Notes under the pieces: generated by a model
Told to the model about the DNA's origin: nothing
Databases searched by the model: none
The model's input: the letters and a program-made list of their open reading frames with translations, nothing else
DNA from: a virus
Virus record (IMG/VR): IMGVR_UViG_2842363717_000002
Span: 14 to 64,013 of that record
Length of the DNA stretch: 64,000 bases
Reading direction: 5' to 3' (one strand)
Program-made: the position numbers and the translations under genes
Shown: positions 5,945-62,689 of the stretch, piece after piece
Layout of the letters: every line of letters begins with the position of its first letter
How positions within the stretch are numbered: the stretch's first letter is position 1

Positions 5945-6321
5945 GCTCGCACCTCCAGAGCGGTCCGAAAAGGATTGGCGTTAACGAGGATATCGCCAAA
6001 CTTGGCTACCACCGCAGCATGGTCTTCCGCATCCATGACAAACAGAAATGTGCCGCCAAGGAAGTTGCCGCGGTCATCGCGCGGGCCGTTCAGGAAGTTC
6101 TTCTGAACAAGACCATACCGAACGCCGACTCGCTCATCCTGCGTTTGTTGGCCGACGCAGTTTTCGCCGACATGAGTCCACTTGCGCTGCTTGAGGGCGG
6201 CCTCAATCTCAGCCAGATCGGGCACTCGCGAAAGCTCAACGGCGTGCCTATAGTCCCTGCTCATGTTCTCGCAGGCACTTACCTCGTCACGGCTCAATAT
6301 GCCGTCGTATACCAATCTCAT
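5941..6321 (-). CDS. phage hypothetical protein
   Basis: Start MRLVYDG follows the CCACCAC-GAGGAG motif. Confidence 0.65.
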   Translation of the reverse strand: MRLVYDGILSRDEVSACENMSRDYRHAVELSRVPDLAEIEAALKQRKWTHVGENCVGQQTQDERVGVRYGLVQKNFLNGPRDDRGNFLGGTFLFVMDAEDHAAVVAKFGDILVNANPFRTALEVRA

Positions 6322-6379
6322 TCTCTTCTCCTCTTCGTGGTGGTTGCCACCGACTTGGTGGGCCGGCGGCAGGTTGTGG

Positions 6380-6634: not shown

Positions 6635-7884
6635 GCCACCCTCCTCTGCTCTGCCGGCGCGTTGTCGTTCGCAGCATCGAGCATGGCGACCCGCACGCGC
6701 GAGATCTCGCCATATGACCGGTGATAGGTGATCGTCTGCAACGAGCGGCCGGACAGGAAGCCTGACCCGAAATGCCAGGCATCTTGCGGGATCGGCGCCT
6801 GATGGGACTCCATGATCACGCCGCCGCCTTCGGTCGCGAATTTCGACTTGTGGTGGACGTGGAATCCGTGGGCATACCGGAACATCGACGCTCCCCAGTC
6901 CTCAGCCCTGCGGTGCGCCATGATTCCCGGCATGTCCTGCAGCTTCGCCTCGTGTCCGTGGGTGGCGGAAATCATCACCTTGCCGTAGCGGCGATGGAAG
7001 AACAAAGACTTGTCCAGATCGACGATAACGCGCGGCTCGTTGCGATACCAAGCGTGAAGGAACCAAGCGATTGCTGGAGCCGTCTCCTCGTCGTGGTTTC
7101 CTTTGAGATTGCGAACCTCCACTATGGCATTATTGCGAAGAGCCGCATCAATAGTCCGGACCAACAGGCGGCCGGCGGTCTCCGTGACCTTGGTGTGCCT
7201 GCCGTCGACGTCGAGAACGTTCTTGGATCTAGATGTCCGGTTCTCGTTGTTGTCGGCATGTGTCAGGTCGCCGCCGCCAAGCACGATTGCTACACCGCTA
7301 GCCGGGGAGCGCGCTATTGCTTCCTCGATACCACGACCGATAACGCGCTCCGCAATCTTCAGATCCCAATTCTCGTCGGTCTCTTGGCTCCATGCGAACA
7401 TCCCAACGTGCCAGTCATTGCAAGGTATGAGCGTGACTAGTTCGTCCTGAACGTTTTCGGGTGCTGGCGTTGGGATAGCGGCAGGCTCATAATCAGCGAA
7501 CGCAGCCTTGAGCGTTTCGGCAATGTCGATCGCCGACGGCTCAATCCGCGTCTTCACCCACTGCTGAATCGTCCGTCCATCGGCGTCGACCAACGCCGAA
7601 ACGCCCTTTATGGTGTGCCCGACAGGCATCTCCCATTCCGGCCCTCGCTCCGGCTTCTGCTGGATGAAATCGCCGTTCGGCGTGCTCGTCACCTGGCTGA
7701 TGCGGAACCCCGGCAGCACCGGCTTAGTGCCAAGCATGCCGCGCTCTGCGGCCGCTTTCAGCCTCGAGCAAAACGTGTTGCGCGGCAGGCGGAGCAATTC
7801 GGCCGCCTGCGACTTGTTGCCGAGCGCAATGAACGCGTCGGCGGCTTCCTTGGCGAGATCGTCTGGGAGTCTGGGCGTTGGCAT
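6631..7884 (-). CDS. N-terminal HTH plus calcineurin-like phosphoesterase
   Basis: NDWH, GGDLTHAD, GNHD, HGHE, HVHH; ends AANDNAPAEQRRVA. Confidence 0.75.
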   Translation of the reverse strand: MPTPRLPDDLAKEAADAFIALGNKSQAAELLRLPRNTFCSRLKAAAERGMLGTKPVLPGFRISQVTSTPNGDFIQQKPERGPEWEMPVGHTIKGVSALVDADGRTIQQWVKTRIEPSAIDIAETLKAAFADYEPAAIPTPAPENVQDELVTLIPCNDWHVGMFAWSQETDENWDLKIAERVIGRGIEEAIARSPASGVAIVLGGGDLTHADNNENRTSRSKNVLDVDGRHTKVTETAGRLLVRTIDAALRNNAIVEVRNLKGNHDEETAPAIAWFLHAWYRNEPRVIVDLDKSLFFHRRYGKVMISATHGHEAKLQDMPGIMAHRRAEDWGASMFRYAHGFHVHHKSKFATEGGGVIMESHQAPIPQDAWHFGSGFLSGRSLQTITYHRSYGEISRVRVAMLDAANDNAPAEQRRVA

Positions 7885-8004
7885 TAGGATTCCTTACGGT
7901 TGGACATGAAGAAGCTGGTGCGCTTGAATGCGGCCATGCCCATTTCGTTGATTGCTGCCGTTACGGCCTTTGCAAGGACGGCTCGCAGTGTTTCGTCGTC
8001 CATA

Positions 8005-13642: not shown

Positions 13643-13957
13643 TTACGCGGCGATCCACTGGAACTTGTCGTTCGGCTCGGCGTAGACGTCGTAATCCGTG
13701 GCCGCCGGCACGAGAAAGCGCTTGCCGGTCGTTGCATCCGGCGTCGGACCTACCGACACCCACGAGTCCGCAGCGGCACGAATGCGAAACATCGCCTGGC
13801 CAGAGCCAGAGTTTTCGCCTGGTGCAGAATTGGTGGATGTGACTCCGGTGGCCGGCGCCTCGCTCCACGCGATCTTGCCGAGGATGGCCTGAGACTTGTC
13901 TCGAGCGAAAAGAGAGCCGGGATAACCGCAAACGACATGAAGGCCTGAGAAAGCCAT
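13643..13957 (-). CDS. phage hypothetical protein
   Basis: GGAGAC RBS with CCACCAC motif. Confidence 0.7.
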   Translation of the reverse strand: MAFSGLHVVCGYPGSLFARDKSQAILGKIAWSEAPATGVTSTNSAPGENSGSGQAMFRIRAAADSWVSVGPTPDATTGKRFLVPAATDYDVYAEPNDKFQWIAA

Positions 13958-14009
13958 GGTAGTCTCCTGAAATGTGGTGGTGTTGGTCGGCCATGGTGCG
14001 GCCAGTGGA

Positions 14010-26432: not shown

Positions 26433-26556
26433 CGCGAGTATCCCTCTCACTATCCAATGTAGGCGCTTGGCAGGCGGTTGGATGACCGCTTTTCGGGAGC
26501 TACCCTAGCCAAGCAACTGGTATATAGTCGGCTGACCGCCTATAATCAACTCTGAG

Positions 26557-30600: not shown

Positions 30601-31875
30601 TTAAGCCTGAATCAGATACTTAACGGACGCCGTGTCGAGCAACTCTCCGTCGAAGCGGATGAGACCGGCGATGCCGAGATCCGGCCAGAAACGCTCGCGC
30701 AGGACGCCGATAACCGGAGAGCCAACCTTGCGGACCCAGTACTTGCCGAGATCGCCGAAGAGGATGGTCTTGTTGCCGGTCGCAATGTTCGCCATCGCCT
30801 GGTTGATGACGTAGCGATAGCCAAGCAGAGTGCCGGGAGCGCCTTCCTTGACGTTGCCCATCTGCCAGAGGTAGTTGCCCTGACCGTCCTTCAGCTTGCG
30901 GATGGCCGCCAGCGTCAAGTCGTTGAACATGAAGCTGACCTTCGGCGAGATGCGGTATGCCGGGTCAACAGCGTGCGACAGGTCGATGATTTCGTCAGCG
31001 GCAATTGCCGTGGCCGAGACAGCTGTCTTGCCGAGGGTGGAGGCGGTCACGATGCCGTTCGGAGCGCTCGAGCCCGTGCCGGTCGTCAGCTGTGCGTTGG
31101 CGAGACGGCCGAGACGTTCGCCGAGCAGGTCAGCAAGCAGCGATTCCATGTTGAAGATGGAGTCCTGCGCGAGCTGCCAAGAGAACTTCACGAACTTCGT
31201 GTTGAAGTCGTAGGCCTCGAGCTGCTTCTGGCCGAAGACCGCGTCGGCAGAACCGTCGTCAGTCAGCGCCGTGCCTTCCGTGCCCTGGACGCCAGTCTTG
31301 CTGGTGTCGTCGGTCGTCGGGATCGGCAGTGCGTTGCCAGAAGTCGTGTTGAGTTCGCTGACGATGCTGCCATCGTACATCGGACCCCATGCCTTCATGG
31401 AGCGAACGAGCATATTCTGCAGTTCGACCGGGACAGTGTAACCGCCAGCGGCGTTCGTGCCACCGGTCTGGATACGCTGTTCGATGTTCTCTGTGCCTGC
31501 GCGCAGAACCTTGCGCTCTTCGCCATCCAGGGCGTCAAGCGAGGCGCCGTTGGCGAGGAACTTGAAGAATACTTCGCGATATTCGGCCTTTTCGCCGGTC
31601 TCGGAACCAGCGGCTCGGTCTTCGCCAGCGGCGCCGGGACGCTTCTTGGCGCGCTCTTCATCCTGCCGAGCAGCGAAGCGTGCTTCGAGTGCGGCCTGGT
31701 CTTCTTCGCGCTTGATGTTGCGCTCGACGCGGTCGAACTCTGCCATGATAGTGTCGTGGCGCTGTTCGAGCTCGACGGAACGGGCTTCGTCGGTGTTCTT
31801 TTTGATTTCGTCCAGGGCGGCGCGGGCTTCCGTTACGAGACGGCCGCGCTTTTCCTGCAGCTCAGTGAGAGTCAT
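30601..31875 (-). CDS. HK97-fold major capsid protein
   Basis: N-terminal coiled-coil delta domain; GGYTVP; LTTGTG..P.GI; GDLGKY. Confidence 0.95.
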   Translation of the reverse strand: MTLTELQEKRGRLVTEARAALDEIKKNTDEARSVELEQRHDTIMAEFDRVERNIKREEDQAALEARFAARQDEERAKKRPGAAGEDRAAGSETGEKAEYREVFFKFLANGASLDALDGEERKVLRAGTENIEQRIQTGGTNAAGGYTVPVELQNMLVRSMKAWGPMYDGSIVSELNTTSGNALPIPTTDDTSKTGVQGTEGTALTDDGSADAVFGQKQLEAYDFNTKFVKFSWQLAQDSIFNMESLLADLLGERLGRLANAQLTTGTGSSAPNGIVTASTLGKTAVSATAIAADEIIDLSHAVDPAYRISPKVSFMFNDLTLAAIRKLKDGQGNYLWQMGNVKEGAPGTLLGYRYVINQAMANIATGNKTILFGDLGKYWVRKVGSPVIGVLRERFWPDLGIAGLIRFDGELLDTASVKYLIQA

Positions 31876-31951
31876 GCAAGTCTCCAAATGTGGTGTGGGT
31901 TGGTGCTATTGGCAGGACGTCTGTCCGGCCCTCCGGCTGGCGACCGGGTGA

Positions 31952-37255: not shown

Positions 37256-37615
37256 TTAGATCGGCCATCCATCCGGACCGTACCGAACTACCGTCTTGCC
37301 GTTGTCCTCTAGCTGGCCGCGAGAGGCGTGGCATGGCTTGCATGTGCTGAGGAATGGACCGAACCAAAAGATTTCTTCCGATCCGCGATGCGGAACAGCG
37401 TGGTGCACCTCCGTCGCCTCGGTCACCACGTCTTGCTCCATGCACCATTGGCACAGCGGATGGGTGGCTAGCTGGTGCATGCGAAGGCGCTGCCACCGTG
37501 CGGACTTGTAGAGCCGTCGATAGAGCGCAGCCTCTTCCGAGCGCGCATCGGACTTGGTTGCAGGGGTCGGACTTGAACCGACGGCCTTCAGGTTATGAGC
37601 CTGACGAGCTACCAT
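37256..37615 (-). CDS. terminase-associated HNH endonuclease (start uncertain)
   Basis: YKSARWQRLR..HPLCQWC..EVHH..CKPCH; only in-frame ATGs are 37615 (inside tRNA-fMet) and 37480. Confidence 0.8.
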   Translation of the reverse strand: MVARQAHNLKAVGSSPTPATKSDARSEEAALYRRLYKSARWQRLRMHQLATHPLCQWCMEQDVVTEATEVHHAVPHRGSEEIFWFGPFLSTCKPCHASRGQLEDNGKTVVRYGPDGWPI

Positions 37616-37631
37616 GCTGCTCTACCCTGCT
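37555..37631 (-). tRNA. tRNA-Met(CAU), initiator-like
   Basis: AGCAGGGTAGAGCAGCATGGTAGCTCGTCAGGCTCATAACCTGAAGGCCGTCGGTTCAAGTCCGACCCCTGCAACCA; 1:72 mismatch and GAGCAGC/GCTC D arm as in fMet. Confidence 0.9.
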
Positions 37632-37635
37632 TGAT

Positions 37636-37712
37636 TGGTCTGAATGGCAGGGTTCGAACCTGCGACCCCGTGAGCCCAAGTCACGTGCGCTACCAGTCTG
37701 CGCTACATTCAG
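37636..37712 (-). tRNA. tRNA-Pro(UGG)
   Basis: CTGAATG acceptor, CGTGA-CTTGGGC-TCACG anticodon arm, GGTTCGAACCC T arm, encoded CCA. Confidence 0.9.
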
Positions 37713-38129: not shown

Positions 38130-39110
38130 TCAGATTTCCATCGAACAATTTGCAGTCCTTGCCAAATAAAGTGCATCAGCAAGATTATCGTTGGCTGCAA
38201 CCAGCAAACGCTTGCCGGCTTCGATGGCGTACTGACCTTTGAAGCCTCTGGCCTCTCCGATCTGCTTTAGGCTGCTGGACTTAACCGCAAGCGTGAGGAT
38301 TTTGAAATGTTCGTCAGCCATCTTGCCGACGGCGCTAAGCCATTCCTGGCGCTCCTCGCGCTGGCTAACGATATCCTGCCACATAACAGAACCGCCGCCT
38401 GCACAGGTTGTCTTCTGCATGCCGAGGAAACTGTCAGCAATCTTAGCTGAGCCGCACGGCAGACCGTCTGGGCACTTGGTGAATGTGACCTTGCTCATGT
38501 CTGTGTTGGCGTATGCCTTTGCCAGTTCAGCCTTGGCCTCGTCGTGATTGATCTTGATGCGCTCGCCTTTATGGCGTCTACCTGTGATGTAGCGCGGCTT
38601 CCTGGTTCCAAGCATCACGGCGAAATATTCGTTACTGTCCGAGACCTCTTGTGGGTTCTCGTCGCCGCCCAATGCTACATCCACCTTGTCGCGGCAGCGA
38701 AGCATGGCCCCTGTTGGCATGCGGGCCGAATATCCCTCAAGCTTGCCGTCAATTGTGAAGCGAAACGCTTTTTCCGTCTGCGTGCCGTCGCTGAACCGGA
38801 TCCGTCCGATCCTGATGACCGGACCGTTGACGATGTGAGTTTTGTGCTCAATACCGTCATACGTCGACATTTCCGTCGTTGCTTCGCTGCGCTCGATTTC
38901 GCCAGTTTTTACGTTCTTCATGATCTCGGCGACCGATGGAGTGACCAAGCGCTTGCGATCATGCTTAAGGTCAGAGACCTCTTCGGGATCGTTGTCATTT
39001 GCGGCAACAACGGTCCAATTCGTTTTTATAGGCTCCGGATCGTGATCCTTTGCCAATACGTATGAACGAAGCGTATCAAGCTGCTCCGCCAGTGATCCGT
39101 GTCTTGCCAT
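38130..39110 (-). CDS. phage protein, candidate late transcription regulator
   Basis: Last early gene before the late region; C-terminal HTH-like SSLKQIGEARG; motif promoter upstream. Confidence 0.5.
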   Translation of the reverse strand: MARHGSLAEQLDTLRSYVLAKDHDPEPIKTNWTVVAANDNDPEEVSDLKHDRKRLVTPSVAEIMKNVKTGEIERSEATTEMSTYDGIEHKTHIVNGPVIRIGRIRFSDGTQTEKAFRFTIDGKLEGYSARMPTGAMLRCRDKVDVALGGDENPQEVSDSNEYFAVMLGTRKPRYITGRRHKGERIKINHDEAKAELAKAYANTDMSKVTFTKCPDGLPCGSAKIADSFLGMQKTTCAGGGSVMWQDIVSQREERQEWLSAVGKMADEHFKILTLAVKSSSLKQIGEARGFKGQYAIEAGKRLLVAANDNLADALYLARTANCSMEI

Positions 39111-39164
39111 AGTCGTCTCCCGCATGTGGTGGTAACTACAATATGGGGCCAACCTACAAAAATA

Positions 39165-39177: not shown

Positions 39178-39416
39178 ACGCCGCAGGCGCGCTTTGTGGC
39201 TTGCTGTGTCGTCCGCAAATAGACGCGCAGGCCGTTGATCGTCGGCTGCGAGACATTGGCGCGCTCTGCGTCGTCCAGCGCCTGCCATGCGTATGCCTCG
39301 ATGTAACGCGACAGCGTGCAGTCCTTGCTGACAACGGCCTGCGCATTGGCAGGCGTGGTAAGGGCGGCTACGGCAAAAGTCGCGGCGATGGCGGATGCAA
39401 GAGCAATTGATTTCAT
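39174..39416 (-). CDS. small secreted protein
   Basis: Signal peptide ending ANA-Q; GAGGAGAC RBS. Confidence 0.65.
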   Translation of the reverse strand: MKSIALASAIAATFAVAALTTPANAQAVVSKDCTLSRYIEAYAWQALDDAERANVSQPTINGLRVYLRTTQQATKRACGV

Positions 39417-39468
39417 GACTGTCTCCTCTTCGTGGTGATGGTTGCGATGGTGCTAATTTAACAAACTC

Positions 39469-45083: not shown

Positions 45084-46492
45084 TATGCGGCACCTCCTAG
45101 CCATGTCGGGATCTGCATCGGGATTTTCGGATCGTAGTTAGCCTTATCGCGCGCCTGCGCATTGATGGCTGCTTTGGTGATGTTGGCTGTGTGCAAGACC
45201 ATGGCCGCGGCCATGCGGTCGGCGTCAGCCTCCTTGCGTTTGAGGTTCGCTACAACGGCGCCCTCGGTCTCGGCGGCGATGAAATGCGCCGTGACTTCGT
45301 TCTGCTGACCGAACCGCCAGAAGCGGCGCACCGCCTGATAGACCTGCTCGAAGCTGTCATTGAGGCCGACAAATCCGGTATCGGCGCAATGCTGCCAGTT
45401 CATGCCAAAACCAGCGATCGACGGCTTTGTGACGAGAACGCGGATTCGACCTTCGCTGAAGTCGATCAACTTCCGCTCTTTGACGTCTTCCTTGTCGGAT
45501 CCTCGCACTTCGACAGCGCCTGGAATGGCGGCTGTCAGTGCTTCGCTCTCGGCGTTGAGATTGCACCACCAGACGAACGGCCGATCGGTAGGCGTTAGGC
45601 TTGCCGCGTGCGCGACACGGTCGCCGACGCTATCTCGGCGCGCCTTGATGCGCTCCTGCAAGGTCGACGCGCGACCGCCGACCAGATCGACGTTGTCAGC
45701 AGACATTGTCACCGTATGGTGAACTTGGTGGAGTGCCGGCAATTGGTAGGGGCCATCGCCGTATCCTAGGTCTGATGGCTTCCGGAGCATGACAGCCCAC
45801 GACGCCATCCATCGCCAGAAGTCGTTTTCGGCATGGCCCTTCAGTCGCCACTTCTGCGTCTCGCCGCCATCGTGCGTGAAGAAGGTGGCGAGCATATCCG
45901 AATAGGACATGATGCCGAGGAATTCAGCGTGGTTGCCGAGTTCCATGAAGTCGTTCGGCGCAGGCGTTGCGGTAGCTGCCAGTCGGAATGGAATGCCGTG
46001 GCAAGCATCCACCAGTTCATTGCGGTAGTGGCCCGACTCGGACTTGAGAATGCTGCTCTCGTCGAGGATCACGCCGGCAAACCGATCGAGATTGAAATGC
46101 TCGATCTTCTGATAGTTGGTGATGTTGATGCCCGGGCCGCATTCGTCTTGGGATTTGACGTGGCGCGCCGGAATTCCGAACTTCTCAGCCTCCCGAACCA
46201 TCTGCGCAGCGACGGCCAACGGCGCAAAATGCAGAATATCGCCCTGCGTTGCGTCGCCGACGGCCTGACCCCATGACAATTCCATGAGGCTCTTGCCGAG
46301 ACCAGTCCCGGCGAACAGCGCAGCCCGGCCGCGCTTGAGCGCCCATGTGACGATGTCGCGCTGGAATGGGAACAGGACAGCAGGCAGTTCTGGAATCTCG
46401 GTCAGGCCAGTCGGCGGATCCAAGATCGCCTTTCTGGCTAGAAACTCAGCATAGGCGTCAGCCTGCGCCGATGGCGCAATGTTCATATTCAT
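45083..46492 (-). CDS. SNF2-like helicase
   Basis: LFPFQ, GTGLGKS, LDES, TATP, GMNWQ, QAVRR. Confidence 0.85.
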   Translation of the reverse strand: MNMNIAPSAQADAYAEFLARKAILDPPTGLTEIPELPAVLFPFQRDIVTWALKRGRAALFAGTGLGKSLMELSWGQAVGDATQGDILHFAPLAVAAQMVREAEKFGIPARHVKSQDECGPGINITNYQKIEHFNLDRFAGVILDESSILKSESGHYRNELVDACHGIPFRLAATATPAPNDFMELGNHAEFLGIMSYSDMLATFFTHDGGETQKWRLKGHAENDFWRWMASWAVMLRKPSDLGYGDGPYQLPALHQVHHTVTMSADNVDLVGGRASTLQERIKARRDSVGDRVAHAASLTPTDRPFVWWCNLNAESEALTAAIPGAVEVRGSDKEDVKERKLIDFSEGRIRVLVTKPSIAGFGMNWQHCADTGFVGLNDSFEQVYQAVRRFWRFGQQNEVTAHFIAAETEGAVVANLKRKEADADRMAAAMVLHTANITKAAINAQARDKANYDPKIPMQIPTWLGGAA

Positions 46493-46586
46493 CTTGTCTC
46501 CTCAGACTGTGGTGGATCATCCCGCGCGTTGGTGGCGCGCGGAGTGGTGTATGTTATGGTAGCTTGCACTCAACGAAAGGCTGGCG

Positions 46587-47616: not shown

Positions 47617-47960
47617 TCTGCGGCTCCCACCAGCGAACGAAGGCGAGCGATGGACGGCTCGACATGCCCATTCCAGTCGCGGATCAGGTCGTCAGTTTCG
47701 TCGTCTAGGTTGATCTCGTCGAGGCGAGCAAGCAGGAACTGCGCCTCGCCAGTGATAGATCCGAGCCTCTCCCGAAGTGCGGCTACCTCATAAGCCAGCG
47801 CAATATGCAGGTTGTCTGGTCCGCTATCGCGGAATGCCGGCCATTCATCGCCATAGCGAAGCGCCTCCCAATTGCCGGCATTCTTCTGTTGAATCGTGTA
47901 CTTGCCATCGTTCACGGTCACTGAAATCAGTCCGTCCTCGGCTCTTCTCTCGGTCATCAT
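47613..47960 (-). CDS. phage hypothetical protein
   Basis: GAGGAGAC RBS with CCAC motif. Confidence 0.65.
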   Translation of the reverse strand: MMTERRAEDGLISVTVNDGKYTIQQKNAGNWEALRYGDEWPAFRDSGPDNLHIALAYEVAALRERLGSITGEAQFLLARLDEINLDDETDDLIRDWNGHVEPSIARLRSLVGAAE

Positions 47961-48000
47961 CGTCTCCTCACGTGGTGTGGTTGTCGCGCTGGTTGGGCGC

Positions 48001-48501
48001 CTATGATTTCGCCCAAAGGGCAACGTCATCAAAATGCACTGGCGTAAAACCGATGCTTTCTACTGACATGTCGCGGTGGAACCCCTCGAGCCCCTCAAGG
48101 TTGCCGTGGACATGCCCATGCAAATTCTTGGTGCCGTGCCGCAACTGGTCCAATCGCATCGGAATGTGAGATGCAGTGAAACCTTCGTCACGGAATTGCC
48201 GCCACAGCGCGATGCGTTGAAAGATCCCCGCTGCTGCAAGAGACGGAATGTCATCGTGATTGCCGACAATTAGGCGGATAGCGCCGTTGAGCTTCGGACG
48301 TACGCGCTTTGCATCTTCTGTCTTCCAAGCGAAATCGCCTAGGTGATAGACGAGATCCTGTGGTTTTACCGCCGCGTTCCAGTTATCGATAATCGCTTCT
48401 TCCATTTCGCTCAGCGACGAAAACTGTGGCCTGCAATAGGTGATGATATTGTTGTGACCGAAGTGGGTATCACTGATGAACCATACATTTCTTGCCGTCA
48501 C
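48001..48501 (-). CDS. calcineurin-like metallophosphoesterase
   Basis: SDTHFGH, LGDF, GNHD, SHIP, HGHVH. Confidence 0.88.
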   Translation of the reverse strand: MTARNVWFISDTHFGHNNIITYCRPQFSSLSEMEEAIIDNWNAAVKPQDLVYHLGDFAWKTEDAKRVRPKLNGAIRLIVGNHDDIPSLAAAGIFQRIALWRQFRDEGFTASHIPMRLDQLRHGTKNLHGHVHGNLEGLEGFHRDMSVESIGFTPVHFDDVALWAKS

Positions 48502-48551
48502 TGGCGTCTCCTCACGTGGTGTAATTTGGTAGCTTCACCGTGGCGTCAATT

Positions 48552-51199: not shown

Positions 51200-51672
51200 G
51201 CTGCCACCTGCATCAGACGGCCGCGTGCCAATTCCCGGCGCTGGCGCATTGCCTCTCGAGAGATGCCGCGTTCTCGCCCCATGTCTGTTAGCGTGTCGCC
51301 CATGGCCTCGCGAATGACCGCCTCGCCGTCGGGGATGGTGGAAAGCAGCGACAACACCCGGGACAACGTCGCTGCGTCATCCTGGTTCTGGATGGCACCA
51401 ACGCGGTAAGCCGCAGTCTCAGGCACGGTGACGCCGCAGCGCATGGCCTGCCGAGATTTGCGGATGTGGTTGCTGGCCGCTCTGCGGAGGATGATCTGCG
51501 CCCAGGTGCGGAACGTGCCCATGCGGCAACGATCGGCAAGGTGGAGCATGTCTGTCAGTGCATCCTGCAGAAGGTCTTCTGCGCGTGGGCCGGCCATATA
51601 TTTGGCCTGGCGCTTGAGGGAGGGAAGATATGCGGTAAGGGCGGCGTCGAAGCCGGGTGGCCGATCGGTCAT
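51196..51672 (-). CDS. ECF-sigma-like protein 2
   Basis: YLPSLKRQAKY..AEDLLQD..FRTW; GDTLTDMGRERGISREAMRQ. Confidence 0.7.
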   Translation of the reverse strand: MTDRPPGFDAALTAYLPSLKRQAKYMAGPRAEDLLQDALTDMLHLADRCRMGTFRTWAQIILRRAASNHIRKSRQAMRCGVTVPETAAYRVGAIQNQDDAATLSRVLSLLSTIPDGEAVIREAMGDTLTDMGRERGISREAMRQRRELARGRLMQVAA

Positions 51673-51715
51673 GGTTGTCTCCTCTTGTGGTGGTGATTGG
51701 CTGGTGAGGCCCGTA

Positions 51716-53462: not shown

Positions 53463-54517
53463 ATCCTGACCGGCATAAGGACGGCCAACAGCCCCTCAGC
53501 CTTATCAGACGTGAAGACCGCCGGCGAGCCGCTATCAGCCAGCGCCAACCTGATATCGCCAGCCGGGAAGATGCCAACGAGTTCGGTGAGGTACGCCGCA
53601 TTGAATCCGATATCGATCTTGTCTCCGTTATACGAGACGACGATTTCGTCAGATGCGCTGCCGCGCTCTGGGTTGCTGACATCCAACTTCCCTACGCCAT
53701 CCGCTAAGGACAGGCGTACGGCTTTGCCGCGCTCGGAAGACACGGCAGCAACTCGGCCAGCAGCCTGGCGCATGTCATCGCTGCCAAACGTCACGATCTT
53801 GTCGTTGGCGGTCGGAATGACGCGCTGATAGTCCGGGAACGTGCCGTCGATCAGTTTCGATGTGAGGATGAAGTCGCCGGCCGAGATGCGGATCTTGGAT
53901 TCGGAGACCGATACAGACACAACGCCCTTGGGAAGCAGGCCAACCGCCTTGCGGGGCACGATGACGCCGGTAAAGGCTGGAACGGCAGGGCCGGTGTGGC
54001 GAGATAGGCGGTGGCCGTCAGTCGACACGGCGACAACGGCGCCGTCATGAACGTGTAGGAACACGCCATTGAGGTAATAGCGCGTCTCTTCCGTGGACAT
54101 CGCAAACGCAACCGGCGCAAACAGCGAGGCGAGGTCGATCTCGAATGATGCATCATATGCTTTATCGCCGAACGTGGGAAAGTCCGCCGCATCGAGTGTG
54201 GACAGCTTAAACACGCTACGCCCTGATTTTATCTGGAGGCGATCACCCTCAAGGCTGATGGAAATATCGCCACCGGCCTTCTTGGCGATATCGGCGAGCA
54301 ACTTGGCGTCGACACAGACCGTGCCCGGCGTGGTAACGTCGGCCGGCGCAACATCGGTGGCGACGATATCAAGGTCGGTGCCGGTGACGTGCAGGCGGCC
54401 CTCTGCGGCGGAAAGCAGTACGTTGCCAAGGATGGGGATGGTGTTGCGGCTTTCGACGACGCGGCCGACGTTGGTCAGCACGCGCGCGAGGTCGGCCCGC
54501 TGGATGGTGAGTTTCAT
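53459..54517 (-). CDS. dnaN: DNA polymerase III beta sliding clamp homolog
   Basis: RNTIPILGNVL, TGTDL, ETRYYLNGV, STDGHRL, SKLIDGTFPDY, IGFNA.YL, VLMPVRI. Confidence 0.92.
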   Translation of the reverse strand: MKLTIQRADLARVLTNVGRVVESRNTIPILGNVLLSAAEGRLHVTGTDLDIVATDVAPADVTTPGTVCVDAKLLADIAKKAGGDISISLEGDRLQIKSGRSVFKLSTLDAADFPTFGDKAYDASFEIDLASLFAPVAFAMSTEETRYYLNGVFLHVHDGAVVAVSTDGHRLSRHTGPAVPAFTGVIVPRKAVGLLPKGVVSVSVSESKIRISAGDFILTSKLIDGTFPDYQRVIPTANDKIVTFGSDDMRQAAGRVAAVSSERGKAVRLSLADGVGKLDVSNPERGSASDEIVVSYNGDKIDIGFNAAYLTELVGIFPAGDIRLALADSGSPAVFTSDKAEGLLAVLMPVRI

Positions 54518-54575
54518 GGTGGTCTCCTCTTGGTGGTGGTGTGCCGCACGGTTGGTTGCCGTGCGGCGGTGGTGG

Positions 54576-54980
54576 TTAGGCTACAAAGCCTGCCGGCGTG
54601 ATGTACTCGCCGTTGCGCATTTCATGAAAACTCCACGTCTTGCCAGGATGAGCAGCGACCCAGTCTGATACTGCCTGCTCAATGGCATTTCCCAGAGACC
54701 GGTGCGGCTTATCGTATTCTGCCCAGGGATCGTCTGGACCGTCCTCGCCAAAGCATTCTTCGTTGCGTTCGGTGAGATCTTCCATGATGCGCTCGGCGTA
54801 TGCTTCACCGTCAACGTAGGCGGACATCACAGTCTTGTCGGCTTCGACGATGTAGAATGGCGCTCGGTCGTAATCGCCTGTGCCGACATGAATAGCCTCT
54901 TCTCTGCTATCGTATGGCCCGCTGAATATCTCCGCATCTTCGGAGTCCGACACCCACCATTTGAAATTCTTGTCGCTCAT
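54576..54980 (-). CDS. phage hypothetical protein
   Basis: GAGGAG RBS with CCACCAC. Confidence 0.7.
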   Translation of the reverse strand: MSDKNFKWWVSDSEDAEIFSGPYDSREEAIHVGTGDYDRAPFYIVEADKTVMSAYVDGEAYAERIMEDLTERNEECFGEDGPDDPWAEYDKPHRSLGNAIEQAVSDWVAAHPGKTWSFHEMRNGEYITPAGFVA

Positions 54981-55039
54981 TGTCTCTCCTCTAGTGGTGG
55001 AATGGCGGGCCGCTGGTGACGACCCGCCTTGTTATGCTG

Positions 55040-55666
55040 TTACTTCCGAGCGCCCCAAGGTTTCGACCCAGCCGGCTTTGCTGCCGCTGCGGCCGACGAT
55101 GCCTGGCGATTGTCATTTGCCGCGGGTGCGCGGTTGTCGTTGGCAGCAGCTGGCTCGTTGCGCTTCTTGCCCTGCGTGCCGTCGCCGATCACGCCGAGTT
55201 CCGGAACGGGCTCCTTGGCGCCTTCATGGGTGAAGAAGAACCGCTCAATCTGGTTCTTGTCCTTGTAGAAGGTGCCGTCCGGCTTTTTGTTGCCGATCTG
55301 GATGCCGATCTCGGCCGTGAACGACTTGAACAGCAGGTCATCCGTGTCGGTGTCGGCAGTGATTTCCTCGCCGACCGCATAGCCAAATCTGTCGAACATG
55401 GGCTTACCGTACTTGTAGGCACCGTGCTGGAAGCCGTCGGAGTGGACGATCGTCCAATAGGCCCAGAACTTGCGCTTGGCGAATTCGACGGGCTCGATCA
55501 CCTCGAAAGTGATTTCAGCCTGCCAGCCCTTCTTGTCCTGCGTTTCGGTGAGGTTGATCGCCTCGGCCTGGAGCTGCGCATACATGTGCGGCAGGATGCC
55601 ACCGCCGCCGCCCTGCTTCTCGGTGTTCTCGTAATCTGCTGCGTAGTTGTTGCCAATCTTGGCCAT
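55040..55666 (-). CDS. putative single-stranded DNA-binding protein (DUF669-like)
   Basis: Follows Sak4; OB-like core with tail ending KPWG; two ANDN copies. Confidence 0.65.
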   Translation of the reverse strand: MAKIGNNYAADYENTEKQGGGGGILPHMYAQLQAEAINLTETQDKKGWQAEITFEVIEPVEFAKRKFWAYWTIVHSDGFQHGAYKYGKPMFDRFGYAVGEEITADTDTDDLLFKSFTAEIGIQIGNKKPDGTFYKDKNQIERFFFTHEGAKEPVPELGVIGDGTQGKKRNEPAAANDNRAPAANDNRQASSAAAAAKPAGSKPWGARK

Positions 55667-55830
55667 GCTAGTCTCCTTCTGTGGTGGTTAGTTGGTGGCG
55701 GCGTAGTAGCGCCAAGGCGTGGTTGCCTTTGGCGTTACCGATCGTTCGCGGATGACGGTCTGCAGCCAGACCGTGCCGCTGTTGCGTGTTGTGACGGGGA
55801 ACCACGCGAACCAGCGTTCAGAGTGGAACA

Positions 55831-57264: not shown

Positions 57265-58416
57265 TTAGGCGGCGGCGCCGTACGGATATTCGACGAAGTG
57301 CTCGACGACATCCTTCGACTGCTTGAGCGGCATGCCAGTTACGGCACGCAGTTCCTTGATGGCATCGATTTTCTTGCCCTTGGCGGCAAGTCGCTGCCAT
57401 TCGTGCTTGTAGGTCGGCGCCGCTTCCTGGCTGGTGGTGGTCAGGACATAGACGCCGAACTGCTGGCCCTTATGCTTACCGGCGAGGCGGCTGGCCTCTG
57501 CTTTGGCGGCCGATTCGGTGGCGTGCACAAACGGCCGGCTGGATGGCTTCGGCTGGCCGTCTTCGATGAGGGCGACGATGGCGGTGGGAGTCGGTGCGGC
57601 CGGCGCGGGAACGGCTTCCGAATGGTAGAAATAAAGCAGCCCAACAGGCGATTTCAATTCGAACCCATCGTCATCTGATTTTTCGACGCGATGGACCCCG
57701 CCGACCGGTAATTCATCTTCGTAATCGGTGTGAATGATTTTTACCCAGTCACCAGCCCTGAACTTGGCCGGCGCCGCGTTGTCGTTGCTTGCCGTGGTGG
57801 TTGGCTCGTCGATCCATTCGGCGACGATGTCGTTCGCAAGTTCCGTCGTTGTGTCATCCCGCGTGGACTGACGGCCTGTGTCTGTCCACACCGCAGACGA
57901 CCAATTTCCTTTCTCGCCGAACGTAGTAGTTGACCCAGTCACGAACGCCGGCCCGACCTTGCGGCCGTCGCGCGTCTTGTAGAACTTGCCGGCCTCGAGT
58001 GCGAAGACGGGAAGCGGTTCGAAGCAGTCGATCGTGGCGCGCGTAAGGTTGCGCGGCGAGGCCATCGTTTCGTAATTGACCGGCGGATCGATATTTAGGA
58101 GGTACTCGCCGTTGTCGACCAACTTCCCGGACCAGGAGCTGATTGTGGCCGTCTTGCCGATCGCGCCGGTGGTGGATCTTGCGTCTTTGACGAGCCGTAC
58201 GCGATCGCCGACCTTCGGCTGCCACGGCTGCCACGGCTGCTCGACGAGCTCGAATCGGTAGGCGCTCATGCCACCTTGGCTGCCGTAATCCATATCAACC
58301 GTGATGAACTCGCCATCGTACTGCCTCACGACATACTCATTGCCGGCAGTAACGCATTTGGTGTTGTCGTCGTTAACGCACTTAACCCGATCCCCAACCT
58401 TAAACTTTCCCATCAT
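57265..58416 (-). CDS. modular protein with SH3-like repeats and C-terminal ribosomal L7/L12-CTD-like domain
   Basis: KFKVGDRV x3-like repeats; GKKIDAIKELRAVTGMPLKQSKDVVE. Confidence 0.65.
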   Translation of the reverse strand: MMGKFKVGDRVKCVNDDNTKCVTAGNEYVVRQYDGEFITVDMDYGSQGGMSAYRFELVEQPWQPWQPKVGDRVRLVKDARSTTGAIGKTATISSWSGKLVDNGEYLLNIDPPVNYETMASPRNLTRATIDCFEPLPVFALEAGKFYKTRDGRKVGPAFVTGSTTTFGEKGNWSSAVWTDTGRQSTRDDTTTELANDIVAEWIDEPTTTASNDNAAPAKFRAGDWVKIIHTDYEDELPVGGVHRVEKSDDDGFELKSPVGLLYFYHSEAVPAPAAPTPTAIVALIEDGQPKPSSRPFVHATESAAKAEASRLAGKHKGQQFGVYVLTTTSQEAAPTYKHEWQRLAAKGKKIDAIKELRAVTGMPLKQSKDVVEHFVEYPYGAAA

Positions 58417-58703
58417 GCTGCTCCTCTCGTGGTGGTGGTTTTGCGGAGCTTGCGCTCCTTGGTGAAGTCGATGACGTTGTCGTCTTCGGCGCCCGAAATG
58501 GCTGCGGCGTCCGGCGGGGGGATTTCGTCGTCATCGACCGCCTGCAGTTCCCATTCGTGGAACTGCAGAACATCCAGCGTCGGGCTGACGCGAATAATAA
58601 CGATGCTCCCCATGAACCCGATGACGATACCGAAAACGTTGGTGTTCATCCTGTGCTCGACGACGTCGCCGATCTCAATGCAGTCGCAATCAGGGCAACT
58701 CAT
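58413..58703 (-). CDS. phage hypothetical protein
   Basis: Coupled ORF. Confidence 0.65.
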   Translation of the reverse strand: MSCPDCDCIEIGDVVEHRMNTNVFGIVIGFMGSIVIIRVSPTLDVLQFHEWELQAVDDDEIPPPDAAAISGAEDDNVIDFTKERKLRKTTTTRGAA

Positions 58704-59050
58704 GCCGCCACCTGCAGATCTGCCAGGCCGGCGATCAGAAGCTCGCGCTCGGACGGCGCGACTTCGGCGATGTCGAGCGTTGGAATGCGCTGCACCGATA
58801 CTGGCATGATGCCGCTCGTCGTCGAGCAGCCGCCGTTGGACGGCACCATCCTGGTGACGGCGCGCGGGTTGTTGTCGTTCGCCGCGGCGATCGGAGAGTT
58901 CTGGTAATGTCCGAGGCCGTACTCGCGCCGCAGGCGCTGGTAACAGGTCATCGGCTTGATGTTGTATCTGGCTGCTATGGCGGCAACGGTCTCGCCGTTA
59001 AGTCTGCGCGCATGCATATCGGCCAGCATAGCGCTGGTAATCATGGTCAT
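58700..59050 (-). CDS. HTH protein, first gene of the early leftward operon
   Basis: GETVAAIAARYNIKPMTCYQRL; AANDN. Confidence 0.65.
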   Translation of the reverse strand: MTMITSAMLADMHARRLNGETVAAIAARYNIKPMTCYQRLRREYGLGHYQNSPIAAANDNNPRAVTRMVPSNGGCSTTSGIMPVSVQRIPTLDIAEVAPSERELLIAGLADLQVAA

Positions 59051-59118
59051 GTCGTCTCCTCTGTGGTGGGATTGGCAGGCGGTGAACTTGCCAATTGATG
59101 GTCATAATGTTATCGATT

Positions 59119-59132
59119 TACAAATTTGTCAA
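59119..59132 (-). promoter_or_regulatory. TTGACAAATTTGTA motif (copy 7), main early promoter
   Basis: TTGACA-N17-CATTAT; between the early operon and the divergent repressor. Confidence 0.72.
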
Positions 59133-59147
59133 AGTATGGCGGCTATT

Positions 59148-59783
59148 ATGTCTTCACGCGGCACCCCCTCCAGAACGCGCTTCGCGCAGATGCTTGCGGC
59201 CGAGCAAATCAAGCGCGGCCAGACAGATCGCGAGGTGGCGGAAAACCATGGCTGGCTGCAGCAGACGTTCAGCCGGTGGAAGCTCGGAAGCCTGCCGCGG
59301 CAGCATATGTTCGCGTCGATCGCCAGCTTCCTGGAAACAGATGAGAACGCTGTGCGGGAGATGGTCGAGGAAGCGCAGGAAAGCGCCGCATCGACGAAGC
59401 TGCCAAACGTGGCCGCATTCAACGCTGCCCGGGTCTATGGTCGCGTGACCGACCGCAAGGACGGGAAGTATGTCTTTGACGCGTTCAACAAAGGCCGCAA
59501 GCGCATTCCTGACGGACGCTACGCCATCTTGATCGACACGAAAATCATGGAGCCGGCGCTGCCGGTCGGCACCAGGGCGTGGCTGGATCCGGCAATCTGG
59601 CCGTCGCCAGGCAATGAAGTGCTGGCCCACGCCAAGGGCGGAGCCGCGTGGATCGGCCGGCTCGTTGGTGTGTCCGGCACGTCCGCCGAGATCGAGCGCG
59701 GCGGATCGACGATGACGGTGCGTGATGTTGAAGGCGTGCATGTCATCGTCCTTTCCGAGCGCGTTGCGCGAATTAATGCTTGA
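59148..59783 (+). CDS. XRE/CI-like repressor with S24-like C-terminal domain
   Basis: QTDREVAENHGWLQQTFSRWKLG HTH; MEPAL..G..AWLDP. Confidence 0.75.
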   Translation: MSSRGTPSRTRFAQMLAAEQIKRGQTDREVAENHGWLQQTFSRWKLGSLPRQHMFASIASFLETDENAVREMVEEAQESAASTKLPNVAAFNAARVYGRVTDRKDGKYVFDAFNKGRKRIPDGRYAILIDTKIMEPALPVGTRAWLDPAIWPSPGNEVLAHAKGGAAWIGRLVGVSGTSAEIERGGSTMTVRDVEGVHVIVLSERVARINA

Positions 59784-59809
59784 CAAATTTGTAGAGTGTT
59801 TGGTAGACA
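59780..59809 (+). promoter_or_regulatory. TTGACAAATTTGTA motif (copy 8), promoter of predicted sRNA
   Basis: TTGACA-N18-TAGACA; overlaps the repressor stop codon. Confidence 0.65.
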
Positions 59810-59814
59810 CAATA

Positions 59815-59995
59815 CGCTGCTGTGGTGGCAGTAAGGAAATCCGGGTTCTGACGAGCGTCAGCTAGTCTCCTCCCCGAGATAGTACGAACCTTCATCCCTG
59901 AGCCGCTAAGCGGGTGGTGCCGGCCTTCGGGTCGGCTCAGAGGATGGGGTTAAGCAAAAAAGCGCCAGCCGGCGGTTAGCCAGCGGCGCTTTTCT
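59815..59995 (+). ncRNA. predicted phage sRNA with anti-RBS elements
   Basis: Promoter upstream, two multibranch domains, own terminator, no ORF. Confidence 0.6.
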
Positions 59996-59998
59996 TAT
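59954..59998. terminator. bidirectional intrinsic terminator
   Basis: AAAAGCGCC...GGCGCTTTT. Confidence 0.65.
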
Positions 59999-60163
59999 GT
60001 CGGCTTTTCATTGATGCTTCTCATGGCGTGATCCCCTCGAATTGGTGCTCCTATAAAAAGGAAAAGCCGCCTCGGTGGGCGGCTCATCTTCTTCTGGGCG
60101 GGTCGCGGCCTTTCGCCGCTACTCTTCTTCTGTCGTGGTCTTTCTTAAGTGGCCGCATTGTCG

Positions 60164-60349
60164 TCATTCTCCAAATGGGGGTTGTCGAGAATAATGTTTT
60201 GTCCGTTGGCGCTTTTGCCCTGCCTCCGGTTGTACTTTGCTTTTTAACTCGCCTACAATCTTCTGCCTTCGATCACTGCCAGCATCGAAACCTCCTTTGC
60301 TGACCCTGTCTGCGGCGCCCTGTTTCGTTTGCGTGATTATGAATGCCAT
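60164..60349 (-). CDS. small basic protein divergent from CI
   Basis: ORF with downstream terminator near 60056-60088; no HTH visible. Confidence 0.4.
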   Translation of the reverse strand: MAFIITQTKQGAADRVSKGGFDAGSDRRQKIVGELKSKVQPEAGQKRQRTKHYSRQPPFGE

Positions 60350-60430
60350 GACTCAATTGATTGTGCAAGTGCTTTCTATTGCATAAATCGGTCAATTGTG
60401 CTAAGCGGTTGATAATTCGGAGATTTTTTT

Positions 60431-61174
60431 ATGACGAAATTAACTGAGAAACTTCATAAGCAATCCAAGGCCGTGGGCGTTACCCAGGCGACGATCGCTC
60501 GCGAGCTGAATATCACACAACAGGCGGTCAACAACCTATTCAACGGGCGCGCGGCGTCCTCGATGTATTGGCGCGAGATCGCCGGCATGCTGCAGATCCC
60601 CGAAGACGAGATGCGCGAGCTGATGATAGACGCCGGCCGCGACCCAGAGAAGAACACCAAGCTGCCGACCGCGCCGCCGCATCGAACCGTTGATGCGGCG
60701 GCCGCCTTTCCTGAGGATGAACCAGTGTTAGCTAATGCCAAAGTCATTGATTTAGTTCCGGTAACGAGGCCCGGCAAGATGATTCCAGTGCTCGGTGAGG
60801 TCGTCGGCGGCGACGATGGCGAATACATCTTCAACGGCCAGGTCCAGGATTATGTCGCCTGCCCGCCATCACTGGTGAACGTTCCGAACGCCTATAGTGT
60901 CTATGTCGATGGCGAGTCGATGGCGCCACGGTATCGGCCTGGCGAAGTAGTATATGTGCACCCCGGCCGCCCTCCTCGGCGCGGTGATGATGTCATCGTG
61001 CAAATCCACGGCAAGGACGACAGCCAGCCGCCGCGCGGCTTCATCAAGGAATTCGTGGGCTGGGCCGGTGAGAAGCTTGTGTTGCAACAATACAATCCTC
61101 AGAAGCGAATCGAATTCAGCCGACAAGCAGTTGTGAGCATTCACCCGATCGTTTTGTCCGGAAAATACATTTGA
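60431..61174 (+). CDS. cI: CI-like repressor (HTH plus S24 autopeptidase)
   Basis: VTQATIARELNITQQAVNNLFNG; VGG cleavage-type site; GESMAPRY; FIKEF. Confidence 0.9.
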   Translation: MTKLTEKLHKQSKAVGVTQATIARELNITQQAVNNLFNGRAASSMYWREIAGMLQIPEDEMRELMIDAGRDPEKNTKLPTAPPHRTVDAAAAFPEDEPVLANAKVIDLVPVTRPGKMIPVLGEVVGGDDGEYIFNGQVQDYVACPPSLVNVPNAYSVYVDGESMAPRYRPGEVVYVHPGRPPRRGDDVIVQIHGKDDSQPPRGFIKEFVGWAGEKLVLQQYNPQKRIEFSRQAVVSIHPIVLSGKYI

Positions 61175-61268
61175 GCCACAACCATAGTTGACTTGCTTAT
61201 AATAATCGCTTATACAACTCCTCACCGCCGCATTTTACCGGGCGGGCACCACGTTGAGGAGACTTGCG

Positions 61269-61472
61269 ATGTTGAACAGAAGAGTTCTTGAGACCGACGA
61301 CGACTATTCCCCGGCAGGCTGCGCCGCCGGTAGCGCGGAGCCGATCCGCAAAGCAGACCATCGTGCCAAGAAGCATCCCCGCCCCGCGCCGCGCAACTTA
61401 GTTTGCCGCGGCCGCCTTGCGTCGCGCCACCAGAAGCCTGGTCGCGTGTTCGCCGAGATGGAGGTGGAGTGA
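61269..61472 (+). CDS. phage hypothetical protein
   Basis: CACCAC-GAGGAGAC RBS. Confidence 0.55.
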   Translation: MLNRRVLETDDDYSPAGCAAGSAEPIRKADHRAKKHPRPAPRNLVCRGRLASRHQKPGRVFAEMEVE

Positions 61473-62309: not shown

Positions 62310-62416
62310 TTCAAATTGCCCGACGGGCAATGGGCGCGGTCGGTGATGATGGCTGCAACTTTCGTTTCCGTACCGCGCCCCAACCAATTCACCAACCACC
62401 ACAAAGGAGACCAAGC

Positions 62417-62689
62417 ATGACCACCAAGAGAAGACAGGCACCAGCCAACAGCAACCGCCTGCAGCCGACACGGCCAAGCAATTACGAGTTCATGCCTTAC
62501 ACCGGAACCGGCACTGAGGTCGTCGACGATCTCACCATTGGCGCGGCGCCCAGTTGGCGCCTGCTGCAAATCGCGCGCTGGCATGATGCAAAGCACGCCG
62601 GCCGCAACGGGCGGATAGCCAATACGCTGCGCCACGTGGCTGGGCGGCAGGATGATGCGAGGGCTGCGGCGCAGGCGGTGGCGGCATAA
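62417..62689 (+). CDS. phage hypothetical protein
   Basis: CCACCAC-AAAGGAGAC RBS. Confidence 0.6.
   Translation: MTTKRRQAPANSNRLQPTRPSNYEFMPYTGTGTEVVDDLTIGAAPSWRLLQIARWHDAKHAGRNGRIANTLRHVAGRQDDARAAAQAVAA

Follow-up and report, generated by a model that had tools for sequence, protein, structure and literature searches.

We analysed a complete 64-kb provirus from IMG/VR (record IMGVR_UViG_2842363717_000002; the whole stretch of 64,000 nucleotides (nt) is called the window below) and found a candidate small RNA (sRNA) gene in its immunity region. Comparative evidence points to a real, independently promoted and structured non-coding RNA gene at this locus. The fixed elements of the RNA are complementary to a bipartite tag, CACCAC followed by GAGGAGAC, which stands directly before the start codons of many phage genes and includes their Shine-Dalgarno (SD) sequence. 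The features of the RNA gene are as follows, with the element complementary to the SD half of the tag given as the anti-SD element:

59780-59809, plus strand: sRNA promoter, with the -35 TTGACA (59780-59785) within TTGACAAATTTGT and an extended -10-like TGgTAGACA at 59801-59809
59815-59995, plus strand: predicted sRNA transcript of about 180 nt, its start (±3 nt) deduced from the promoter and its end from the terminator
59816-59832, plus strand: hairpin 1, a stem of 6 base pairs (bp; 59816-59821/59827-59832) with the loop GUGGU; CUGUGGUGG is complementary to the tag's CCACCACAG
59839-59880, plus strand: hairpin 2, with a conserved covarying base stem, a variable inner hairpin and the anti-SD element on its 3' side
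59865-59872, plus strand: anti-SD element GUCUCCUC, which complements the tag's GAGGAGAC exactly and is invariant in the close group
59898-59940, plus strand: hairpin 3 domain, a covarying stem CUGAGCC/GGCUCAG around a mini-hairpin and a C(UUCG)G hairpin
59912-59921, plus strand: mini-hairpin GG-GUGGUG-CC, whose loop GUGGUG (59914-59919) is complementary to CACCAC
59960-59998, plus strand: bidirectional intrinsic terminator, GC-rich, with U-tracts on both strands; conserved, with compensatory changes, in Rhizobium phage RHph_TM3_3_14B (TM3_3_14B below)

Structure, promoter and neighbourhood of the RNA gene

The window RNA folded with an energy of -81.4 kcal/mol (z = -2.69 compared to dinucleotide shuffles). 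RNAalifold predicted 25 pairs from a MAFFT alignment, 15 of them with compensatory changes. In an alignment of 28 sequences, 98.9% of the cells were paired and 20 of the 25 pairs changed on both sides, with a covariation score of 0.546, as opposed to at most 0.095 when the partners were slid and 0.168 when they were shuffled; this alignment was model-fitted, and the MAFFT-based result agrees with it. Compensatory changes were found in 5 of the 6 pairs of hairpin 1 (100% of cells paired), and double changes occurred in 5 of the 6 pairs of helix 2 and on both sides of all 7 pairs of the hairpin 3 stem. The stems were variable, whereas three exposed elements were fixed, namely the hairpin 1 loop ((C)UGUGGUG(G)), GUCUCCUC and the mini-hairpin loop GUGGUG. 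The first of these was invariant in 27 of the 28 sequences and the last in all 46 aligned members. The pairwise alignment with TM3_3_14B gave a similar picture, with a conserved promoter, three compensatory pairs in hairpin 1, and invariant UGUGGUG, GUCUCCU and GGGUGGUGCC.

The initial annotation of this locus had pointed out UGUGGUGG at 59821-59828, AGUCUCCUCCCC at 59864-59875 and GGGUGGUG at 59912-59919, and these sequences are indeed located there. It had also described the last GUGGU as unpaired in a multiloop. The position inside the multiloop stands; however, covariation makes GUGGUG (59914-59919) the loop of a mini-hairpin of 2-3 bp. The closing pairs of this mini-hairpin change from GG/CC to AG/CU and GA/UC, and to CAC/GUG in one family member (L172).

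The sRNA promoter contains TTGACAAATTTGT, which starts at 59780 and includes the palindrome ACAAATTTGT; in the window, its -35 overlaps the stop codon of the upstream gene for a repressor paralog. The promoter elements CTTGACAAATTTG and GGTAg-ACA were kept in about 20 homologs. A simple promoter scan did not call this promoter because its -10 is weak. Exactly eight copies of TTGACAAATTTGT exist in the window (10503, 27938, 36998, 39165, 39470, 48553, 59120 and 59783), and the sRNA promoter is one of them. Six of the other seven promoters lie on the strand carrying the lytic genes, the early-operon promoter at 59132 (minus strand) among them. The only ACAA-N2-TTGT palindromes in the window are those inside the eight copies, and the half-sites of ACAA-AT-TTGT (ACAA/TTGT) equal those of OR2, an annotated C-repressor operator of phage 16-3 (ACAATTGTAGTTGT). 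TTGACAAATTTGT may be one operator shared by these phage promoters, that of the sRNA among them, and joined to their -35. The initial view of the locus as the eighth copy of a promoter, followed by a stretch without an open reading frame (ORF) and then by a terminator, agreed with the eight TTGACAAATTTGT copies, the non-triplet indels and a terminator at about 59960-59990. The 1-nt and non-triplet indels among the homologs exclude a conserved ORF.

About 45 members of the RNA family were collected from IMG/VR proviruses, from genomes of Rhizobium and other Rhizobiaceae, and from phages RHph_TM3_3_14B, 16-3 and AP-16-3; IMG/VR was scanned for sequence patterns, Rhizobiaceae genomes were searched, and a covariance model (first R1, then R2) was employed. 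The window RNA scored 147.5 bits with the family covariance model at 59809-59956. An 18-mer scan of viral contigs gave 36 matches, about half of which were chance matches in coding DNA and were removed by the covariance model. A pattern scan of genome contigs (596 Gb) with CTGTGGTGG-N25-45-GTCTCCTC was too loose and returned chance matches; among its matches listed, the one in Rhizobium aethiopicum (L107) was recognised as true and 5 other loci failed the covariance model. The RNA was present in 4 of 151 genomes sampled at the family level and 5 of 151 at the genus level, with a single copy per element, and model R2 detected no member outside the centre genome in 150 further genomes at the order level. 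No Rfam family matched the RNA in cmscan searches at the gathering threshold (whole window) or at E <= 10 (59600-60450), the latter giving chance-level matches to ncS01 (E = 1 to 3.4, due to the terminator hairpin) and sraL (E = 3.8). No description of the RNA or the tag was found in the searchable papers, rhizobial prophages and sRNAs of phage 16-3 included.

TM3_3_14B is a relative of the provirus, with a capsid identity of 94%, and Sinorhizobium phage 16-3 is a more distant one (capsid identity of 66%). The order in the immunity region is the cro-like gene (minus strand), the CI-like paralog (plus), the candidate RNA (plus), the bidirectional terminator, a short ORF on the minus strand that has a terminator of its own, and the C-like repressor gene (plus). 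The main genes next to the RNA are:

58700-59050, minus strand: cro-like gene, first in the early operon
59148-59783, plus strand: gene for a CI-like repressor paralog, homolog of p070 of phage 16-3 (PHROG phrog_4, transcriptional repressor), divergent from the cro-like gene
60431-61174, plus strand: gene for the C-like repressor (HTH_3 and Peptidase_S24, GESM present), with 58% identity to the C repressor of phage 16-3

The repressor paralog shows 22% identity to the C-like repressor in the alignment, where an isoleucine of the paralog aligns with the catalytic serine of the S24 domain (TKIM, as opposed to GESM in the C-like repressor). With isoleucine in place of the S24 nucleophile, the paralog is probably a non-cleavable CI-like protein. 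Since no terminator lies between the paralog gene and the RNA, paralog transcripts would read into the RNA. The order of the two was kept in 25 of the 27 homolog loci searched. In phage 16-3 (NC_011103.1, 36882-37028, minus strand; L181/L182), the RNA is present but unannotated, between p070 and p069/Pr/OR; the overlapping annotations p070 and p071 on opposite strands look like a real gene and its shadow ORF. A minimal RNA of ~110 nt was found in genome G128 (L167, G128:C1:4365293-4365417), with hairpin 3 also serving as the terminator. At this locus the repressor-paralog gene is absent, and the RNA lies directly between the early-gene tag/promoter region and the C-like repressor gene.

Just past the sRNA terminator, a conserved block at 60000-60130 contains TTCTCATG, common to several homologs, a second terminator-like hairpin (60064-60085) and a C/T-rich stretch. 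The block is located at the 3' end of a convergent minus-strand unit with a 61-amino-acid ORF (60164-60349). We considered a convergent Pr-like transcript as an anti-sRNA and rejected it, because such a transcript would meet two minus-strand terminators (60085-60064 and 59985-59963) ahead of the RNA body, which would confine any overlap to the terminator. A link between the RNA and immX/avirT of phage 16-3 was considered as well; neither GenBank record annotates immX near the RNA. The immX locus reportedly lies well away from immC and is hence probably not the RNA locus.

The gene-start tag and its complementarity to the RNA

The strict form of the tag, CCACCAC...GAGGAGAC, occurred 4 times in the window, compared to 0 expected. 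With the pattern CACCAC-N1-10-GGAGA, 18 matches at 15 distinct gene starts were obtained, as opposed to 0 in the reversed sequence and a mean of 0.25 in Markov controls. At each of the 15 sites, a start codon followed within 7-19 nt and opened an ORF of at least 67 codons. Relaxed variants raised the count in the window to about 19-20, close to the about 19 genes given in the initial annotation. The 15 tags are:

59054-59069, minus strand: tag CCACCACAGAGGAGAC of the cro-like gene, 4 nt ahead of its ATG
55671-55686, minus strand: tag of the gene starting at 55666
54984-54999, minus strand: tag of the gene starting at 54980
54522-54541, minus strand: tag of the gene starting at 54517
51677-51695, minus strand: tag of the gene starting at 51672
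48506-48521, minus strand: tag of the gene starting at 48501
47962-47977, minus strand: tag of the gene starting at 47960
46496-46515, minus strand: tag of the gene starting at 46492
39421-39437, minus strand: tag of the gene starting at 39416
39115-39131, minus strand: tag of the gene starting at 39110
31880-31895, minus strand: tag of the major capsid gene, starting at 31875
13962-13982, minus strand: tag of the gene starting at 13957
6326-6342, minus strand: tag of the gene starting at 6321
61247-61263, plus strand: tag of the gene starting at 61269, which belongs to the operon following the C-like repressor gene
62397-62411, plus strand: tag of the gene starting at 62417

A hexamer census of the 87 annotated coding sequences (CDS) of TM3_3_14B identified the same two words. 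CACCAC was the top hexamer at -32 to -10 (30-fold enriched, P = 2.5e-28, 16 genes), and GGAGAC was the top hexamer in the SD region (68-fold). The fixed elements of the RNA are the exact reverse complements of these two hexamers, which bears out the initial claim that the RNA is complementary to both halves of the tag. Furthermore, the 'AC' after the GGAG of the tag, which is unable to pair with the 3' end of 16S rRNA, is matched by 'GU' in the RNA. About 20 of the 87 CDS were tagged, mostly genes after intergenic gaps, including those for the cro-like protein, the clamp, the sigma factor, the methylase, the major capsid and the major tail. The integrase gene was untagged, and so were the genes for the C repressor and the p070-like paralog.

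The tag and the RNA also occurred together across related phages. In the unannotated prophages, gene starts were called with a regular expression that required an SD sequence, a start codon and an ORF of at least 40 codons. The RNA-bearing records checked had 9-22 tags each (18 in the window, 22 in TM3_3_14B, 16 in 16-3, 13 in AP-16-3 and 9-16 in five proviruses), compared to 0-2 in reversed-pattern controls. Two capsid relatives without the RNA had 0 tags (a Labrenzia phage) and 3 tags (RHph_Y3_1), respectively. In 4 of the 5 whole genomes scanned (G001, G234, G128 and G017), the tags clustered in the prophage beside the RNA gene, and outside the prophage the tag counts of these four were ~2-fold over the reversed-pattern control or less.

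In addition, the SD flanks of the tag and the anti-SD element of the RNA differed together between lineages. In the group of the window and TM3_3_14B, the tag GAGGAGAC goes with GUCUCCUC in the RNA, whereas GGAGAGACGA goes with UCGUCUCUCC in the G017 prophage and GAGGAGCUACAA with UUGUAGCUCCUC in the G021 prophage. In G128, the tag (A/U)GAGGAGA goes with GACUCCUCUU, the match being limited to a core of 6-8 nt. Between 4 and 8 positions outside the GGAG core match between RNA and tag in these lineage variants, and such matches would be hard to obtain without selection for pairing. The co-variation of the anti-SD element with the tag variants speaks for a direct pairing of RNA and mRNA. Among the members, G021 alone also has an altered loop 1 (UUGGUAG), and its tags often contain ACCAA, a correspondence that is suggestive only, given the small sample. 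We also considered pairing of the UGGU loops with tRNA 3' ends (CACCA) and rejected it; nothing was found in its support, and the RNA matches the tag over a longer stretch (up to 9 nt).

Proposed function and alternative explanations

With confidence a little better than even, we propose that one trans-acting phage RNA pairs with the bipartite tag and lowers the translation of the tagged genes as a set. We infer the expression of the RNA, the sign and timing of its effect and any dependence on a chaperone. The RNA gene, in the immunity region, shares its strand with the two CI-like repressor genes, while the early lytic operon is on the other strand. Its own promoter would produce the RNA, and the mRNA of the upstream repressor paralog would probably also yield it as a 3' end. 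Its three folded domains would present two GUGGUG hairpin loops and the GUCUCCUC segment to the target, CACCAC(A)-N1-10-GAGGAGAC, 4-10 nt ahead of the start codons of about 15-20 independently initiated phage genes. These would include the cro-like, replication, left-operon, capsid, tail and other genes, with the repressor and integrase genes spared. A loop-CACCAC contact could nucleate binding, and the anti-SD pairing would then cover the ribosome-binding site; loop 1 could contact another site or another mRNA. One RNA would probably control the translation of much of the phage genome in this way. The most likely purpose would be to keep leaky lytic genes silent in the lysogen or to make the switch between lysis and lysogeny sharper. 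Four observations favour such a lysogenic role: the RNA shares its strand with the repressor genes; the repressor-paralog gene precedes it and is not separated from it by a terminator, so that the paralog mRNA would end in the RNA; in G128 its immediate neighbours are the early promoter region on one side and the C-like gene on the other; and the lysogeny genes are untagged.

Several observations weigh against this proposal. A whole-window hybridisation scan by seed and extension, which took accessibility into account, did not single out gene starts, and GC-rich stem regions and self-antisense matches topped its ranking. Duplex prediction gave unrealistically long duplexes, and the analysis relied on k-mers and co-variation in place of these thermodynamic scans, which were uninformative. 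Of the RNA elements, arranged as GUGGUG, anti-SD and GUGGUG, just the anti-SD element and the second loop are co-linear with the target, and these are 41 nt apart. No RNA run turned up for the window. Two short contigs in one root metatranscriptome cover the 5' part of a variant of the RNA (L015) and no other part of it; they continue upstream of the predicted start, so that they may reflect read-through or contaminating DNA and do not demonstrate a discrete sRNA. One member (L202, IMGVR_UViG_2884546135_000003, 7764-7895) keeps both loops but has no recognisable anti-SD element. In its prophage, nearby genes have CACCAC-rich leaders with a weak or missing GGAG, which suggests that the loop interaction may be the core of the system. 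The initial annotation had named relatives that keep the tag without the RNA as evidence against it, and RHph_Y3_1 alone touches this point, marginally: it has 3 tags, one of them before a shared capsid gene (93% identity). The tag therefore also has a role independent of the RNA. In this 40-kb phage (MN988490.1), the 3 tags are located at 19832, 23768 and 37711, one just before the major capsid gene that it has in common with TM3_3_14B. Finally, the sRNA promoter has TTGACAAATTTGT in common with seven other phage promoters, including the early one. Should the TTGACAAATTTGT palindrome serve a repressor as its operator, lysogens may not make the RNA, which would then be co-induced with the lytic genes.

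The last point leads to an alternative that keeps the same pairing with a different biology, in which the RNA is co-induced with the lytic promoters via TTGACAAATTTGT and serves as a threshold, timer or dosage governor in lytic growth. We regard it as unlikely. The identical 13-mer in eight promoters of the window, the early-operon and sRNA promoters among them, and its half-sites shared with 16-3 OR2 are consistent with co-induction, as is the sRNA -10, which is weak and variable among homologs. However, the late capsid and tail genes are also tagged, and a repressor accumulating during lytic growth would hit these hardest. The placement of the RNA on the lysogeny strand, its fusion to the 3' end of the repressor-paralog gene and its position directly upstream of the C-like gene in G128 also fit the lysogenic role better.

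It is quite improbable that the main task of the RNA is superinfection exclusion, in which the prophage RNA would block the translation of incoming tag-bearing relatives whatever their repressor, and the SD-flank variants would define RNA immunity groups. The heteroimmunity of P1 and P7 through c4 is a known parallel. The tag and loops are common to phages whose repressors are only 36-94% identical, and the joint lineage differences of SD-flank code and RNA would fit such groups. On the other hand, the constant CACCAC/GUGGUG part shows no diversification of the kind expected from an arms race, and no experimental hint of exclusion was found.

We give slightly less credence still to the view that the tag is a strong, unstructured CA-rich standby site plus SD sequence for de novo initiation and that the RNA does something unrelated to the tagged genes, for example by binding a protein, stabilising an mRNA at its 3' end or serving as a terminator module. 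The tags do stand at genes after intergenic gaps, with the highly expressed capsid, tail and cro-like genes among them, and both the tags kept by RHph_Y3_1 and the missing anti-SD element of L202 agree with this view. However, it leaves unexplained why the invariant loops are exact complements of the two top-enriched hexamers, and why 6-8 flank positions outside the SD sequence change in step in the RNA and the tags of three lineages. A DNA-level motif like the stoperators of Cluster A mycobacteriophages, with a repressor binding oriented CACCAC...GGAGAC and the 'RNA gene' being a cluster of sites, would account for asymmetric, intergenic tags in one orientation relative to transcription and for the same words on the minus strand of the RNA locus. 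It is nevertheless very improbable: the stems around the words covary in a way that keeps RNA pairing, for which there is no reason at the level of DNA, the words are spaced by 36-41 nt in the RNA locus compared to 1-10 nt in the tag, and every tag adjoins a start codon and includes an SD sequence.

A wider version of the proposed RNA-tag pairing is put forward here tentatively, as we expect it on balance not to hold in full. The constant kissing-loop part (GUGGUG:CACCAC) and the lineage-specific SD-flank code would together form a phage-wide RNA address system. Such a system would be a second, post-transcriptional immunity layer with its own specificity groups in 16-3-like phages, and its RNA would be the first trans factor for a start-associated motif.

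Comparison with known systems

The c4 RNA of P1 and P7 has loops that pair with two nearby sites, one of them over the ribosome-binding site, and blocks the translation of lytic functions. It has a single target operon (icd-ant) and is processed from the same transcript. Like c4 and the CI RNA of P4, the RNA described here is a structured phage RNA in the immunity region with separate exposed loops, and its GUGGUG loops and GUCUCCUC are complementary to CACCAC and GAGGAGAC at or over the ribosome-binding site. The resemblance to c4 is functional only, since no match to the Rfam C4 model was found at the gathering threshold in the whole window or at E <= 10 in 59600-60450. Unlike c4, this RNA has its own conserved promoter, and its predicted targets are ~15-20 dispersed genes, mostly on the opposite strand.

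The cuckoo/alpha-r14 sRNAs, for example NfeR1, carry CCUCCUCCC loops and regulate several mRNAs by SD occlusion. They share with the present RNA a C/U-rich anti-SD sequence (CUCCUCCCC here) exposed in a stem-loop of a rhizobial RNA. However, alpha-proteobacterial sRNA models of Rfam gave no more than chance-level matches at E <= 10. While CCUCCUCCC is repeated in at least two loops of the cuckoo/alpha-r14 sRNAs, CUCCUCCCC is single here and the repeated loop motif is GUGGUG. The RNA is also encoded by the phage, and its targets would be phage genes marked by a second motif. In its proposed working, the RNA thus appears to resemble both P1 c4 and the rhizobial anti-SD sRNAs, but the models of these families do not place it among them. 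A further parallel is RegA of T4, a protein that represses the translation of many early mRNAs and acts in lytic growth. Both would be single phage factors acting at the translation-initiation regions of many cistrons, except that the factor proposed here is an RNA and recognition would be by base pairing.

The closest parallel to the tag itself is found in Cluster K mycobacteriophages, where the asymmetric SAS/ESAS motifs, made up of an SD core and positions that do not pair with 16S rRNA, stand a few nt before the starts of a subset of genes (PMC3203893). SAS occurs in one orientation, is confined to non-structural genes and is essentially absent from the host, and its description leaves undecided whether it is bound by an RNA or by a protein of the phage (PMC3203893). 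The present tag is likewise asymmetric, with an SD core and one orientation, and stood before a start codon at 15 of the 15 strict sites in the window. It is also phage-restricted, being clustered in the prophage of G128, G017, G001 and G234. Unlike SAS (GGGATAGGAGCCC), the tag reads CACCAC-N-GAGGAGAC, occurs in other hosts and also marks structural genes. Given this difference in consensus, we consider the tag an analog of SAS and not a member. SAS is without a known trans factor, whereas a complementary RNA was identified for the tag.

To our knowledge, the known antisense and small RNAs of phages act on one or a few targets. The RNA of this provirus matches a tag that marks a fifth of the phage genes, cro-like, replication, capsid and tail genes included. 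If confirmed, the pairing would be a genome-wide post-transcriptional switch on top of classical repressor control, and it would offer an explanation for start-associated motifs. The co-varying RNA/tag pairs are natural compensatory mutants and suggest a compact, programmable multi-gene control in rhizobia. The genetics of phage 16-3 and its host, S. meliloti Rm41, are tractable, and the hypothesis is directly testable because the family includes this phage.

The provirus also holds an int-alpA RNA and two tRNA genes recognised by Rfam, at 26448-26515 (minus strand) and 37558-37712 (minus strand). A 383-amino-acid early protein (57265-58416, minus strand) showed a weak match of its C-terminus to the C-terminal domain of ribosomal protein L7/L12 (E = 2.5e-05), just below the Pfam cut-off.

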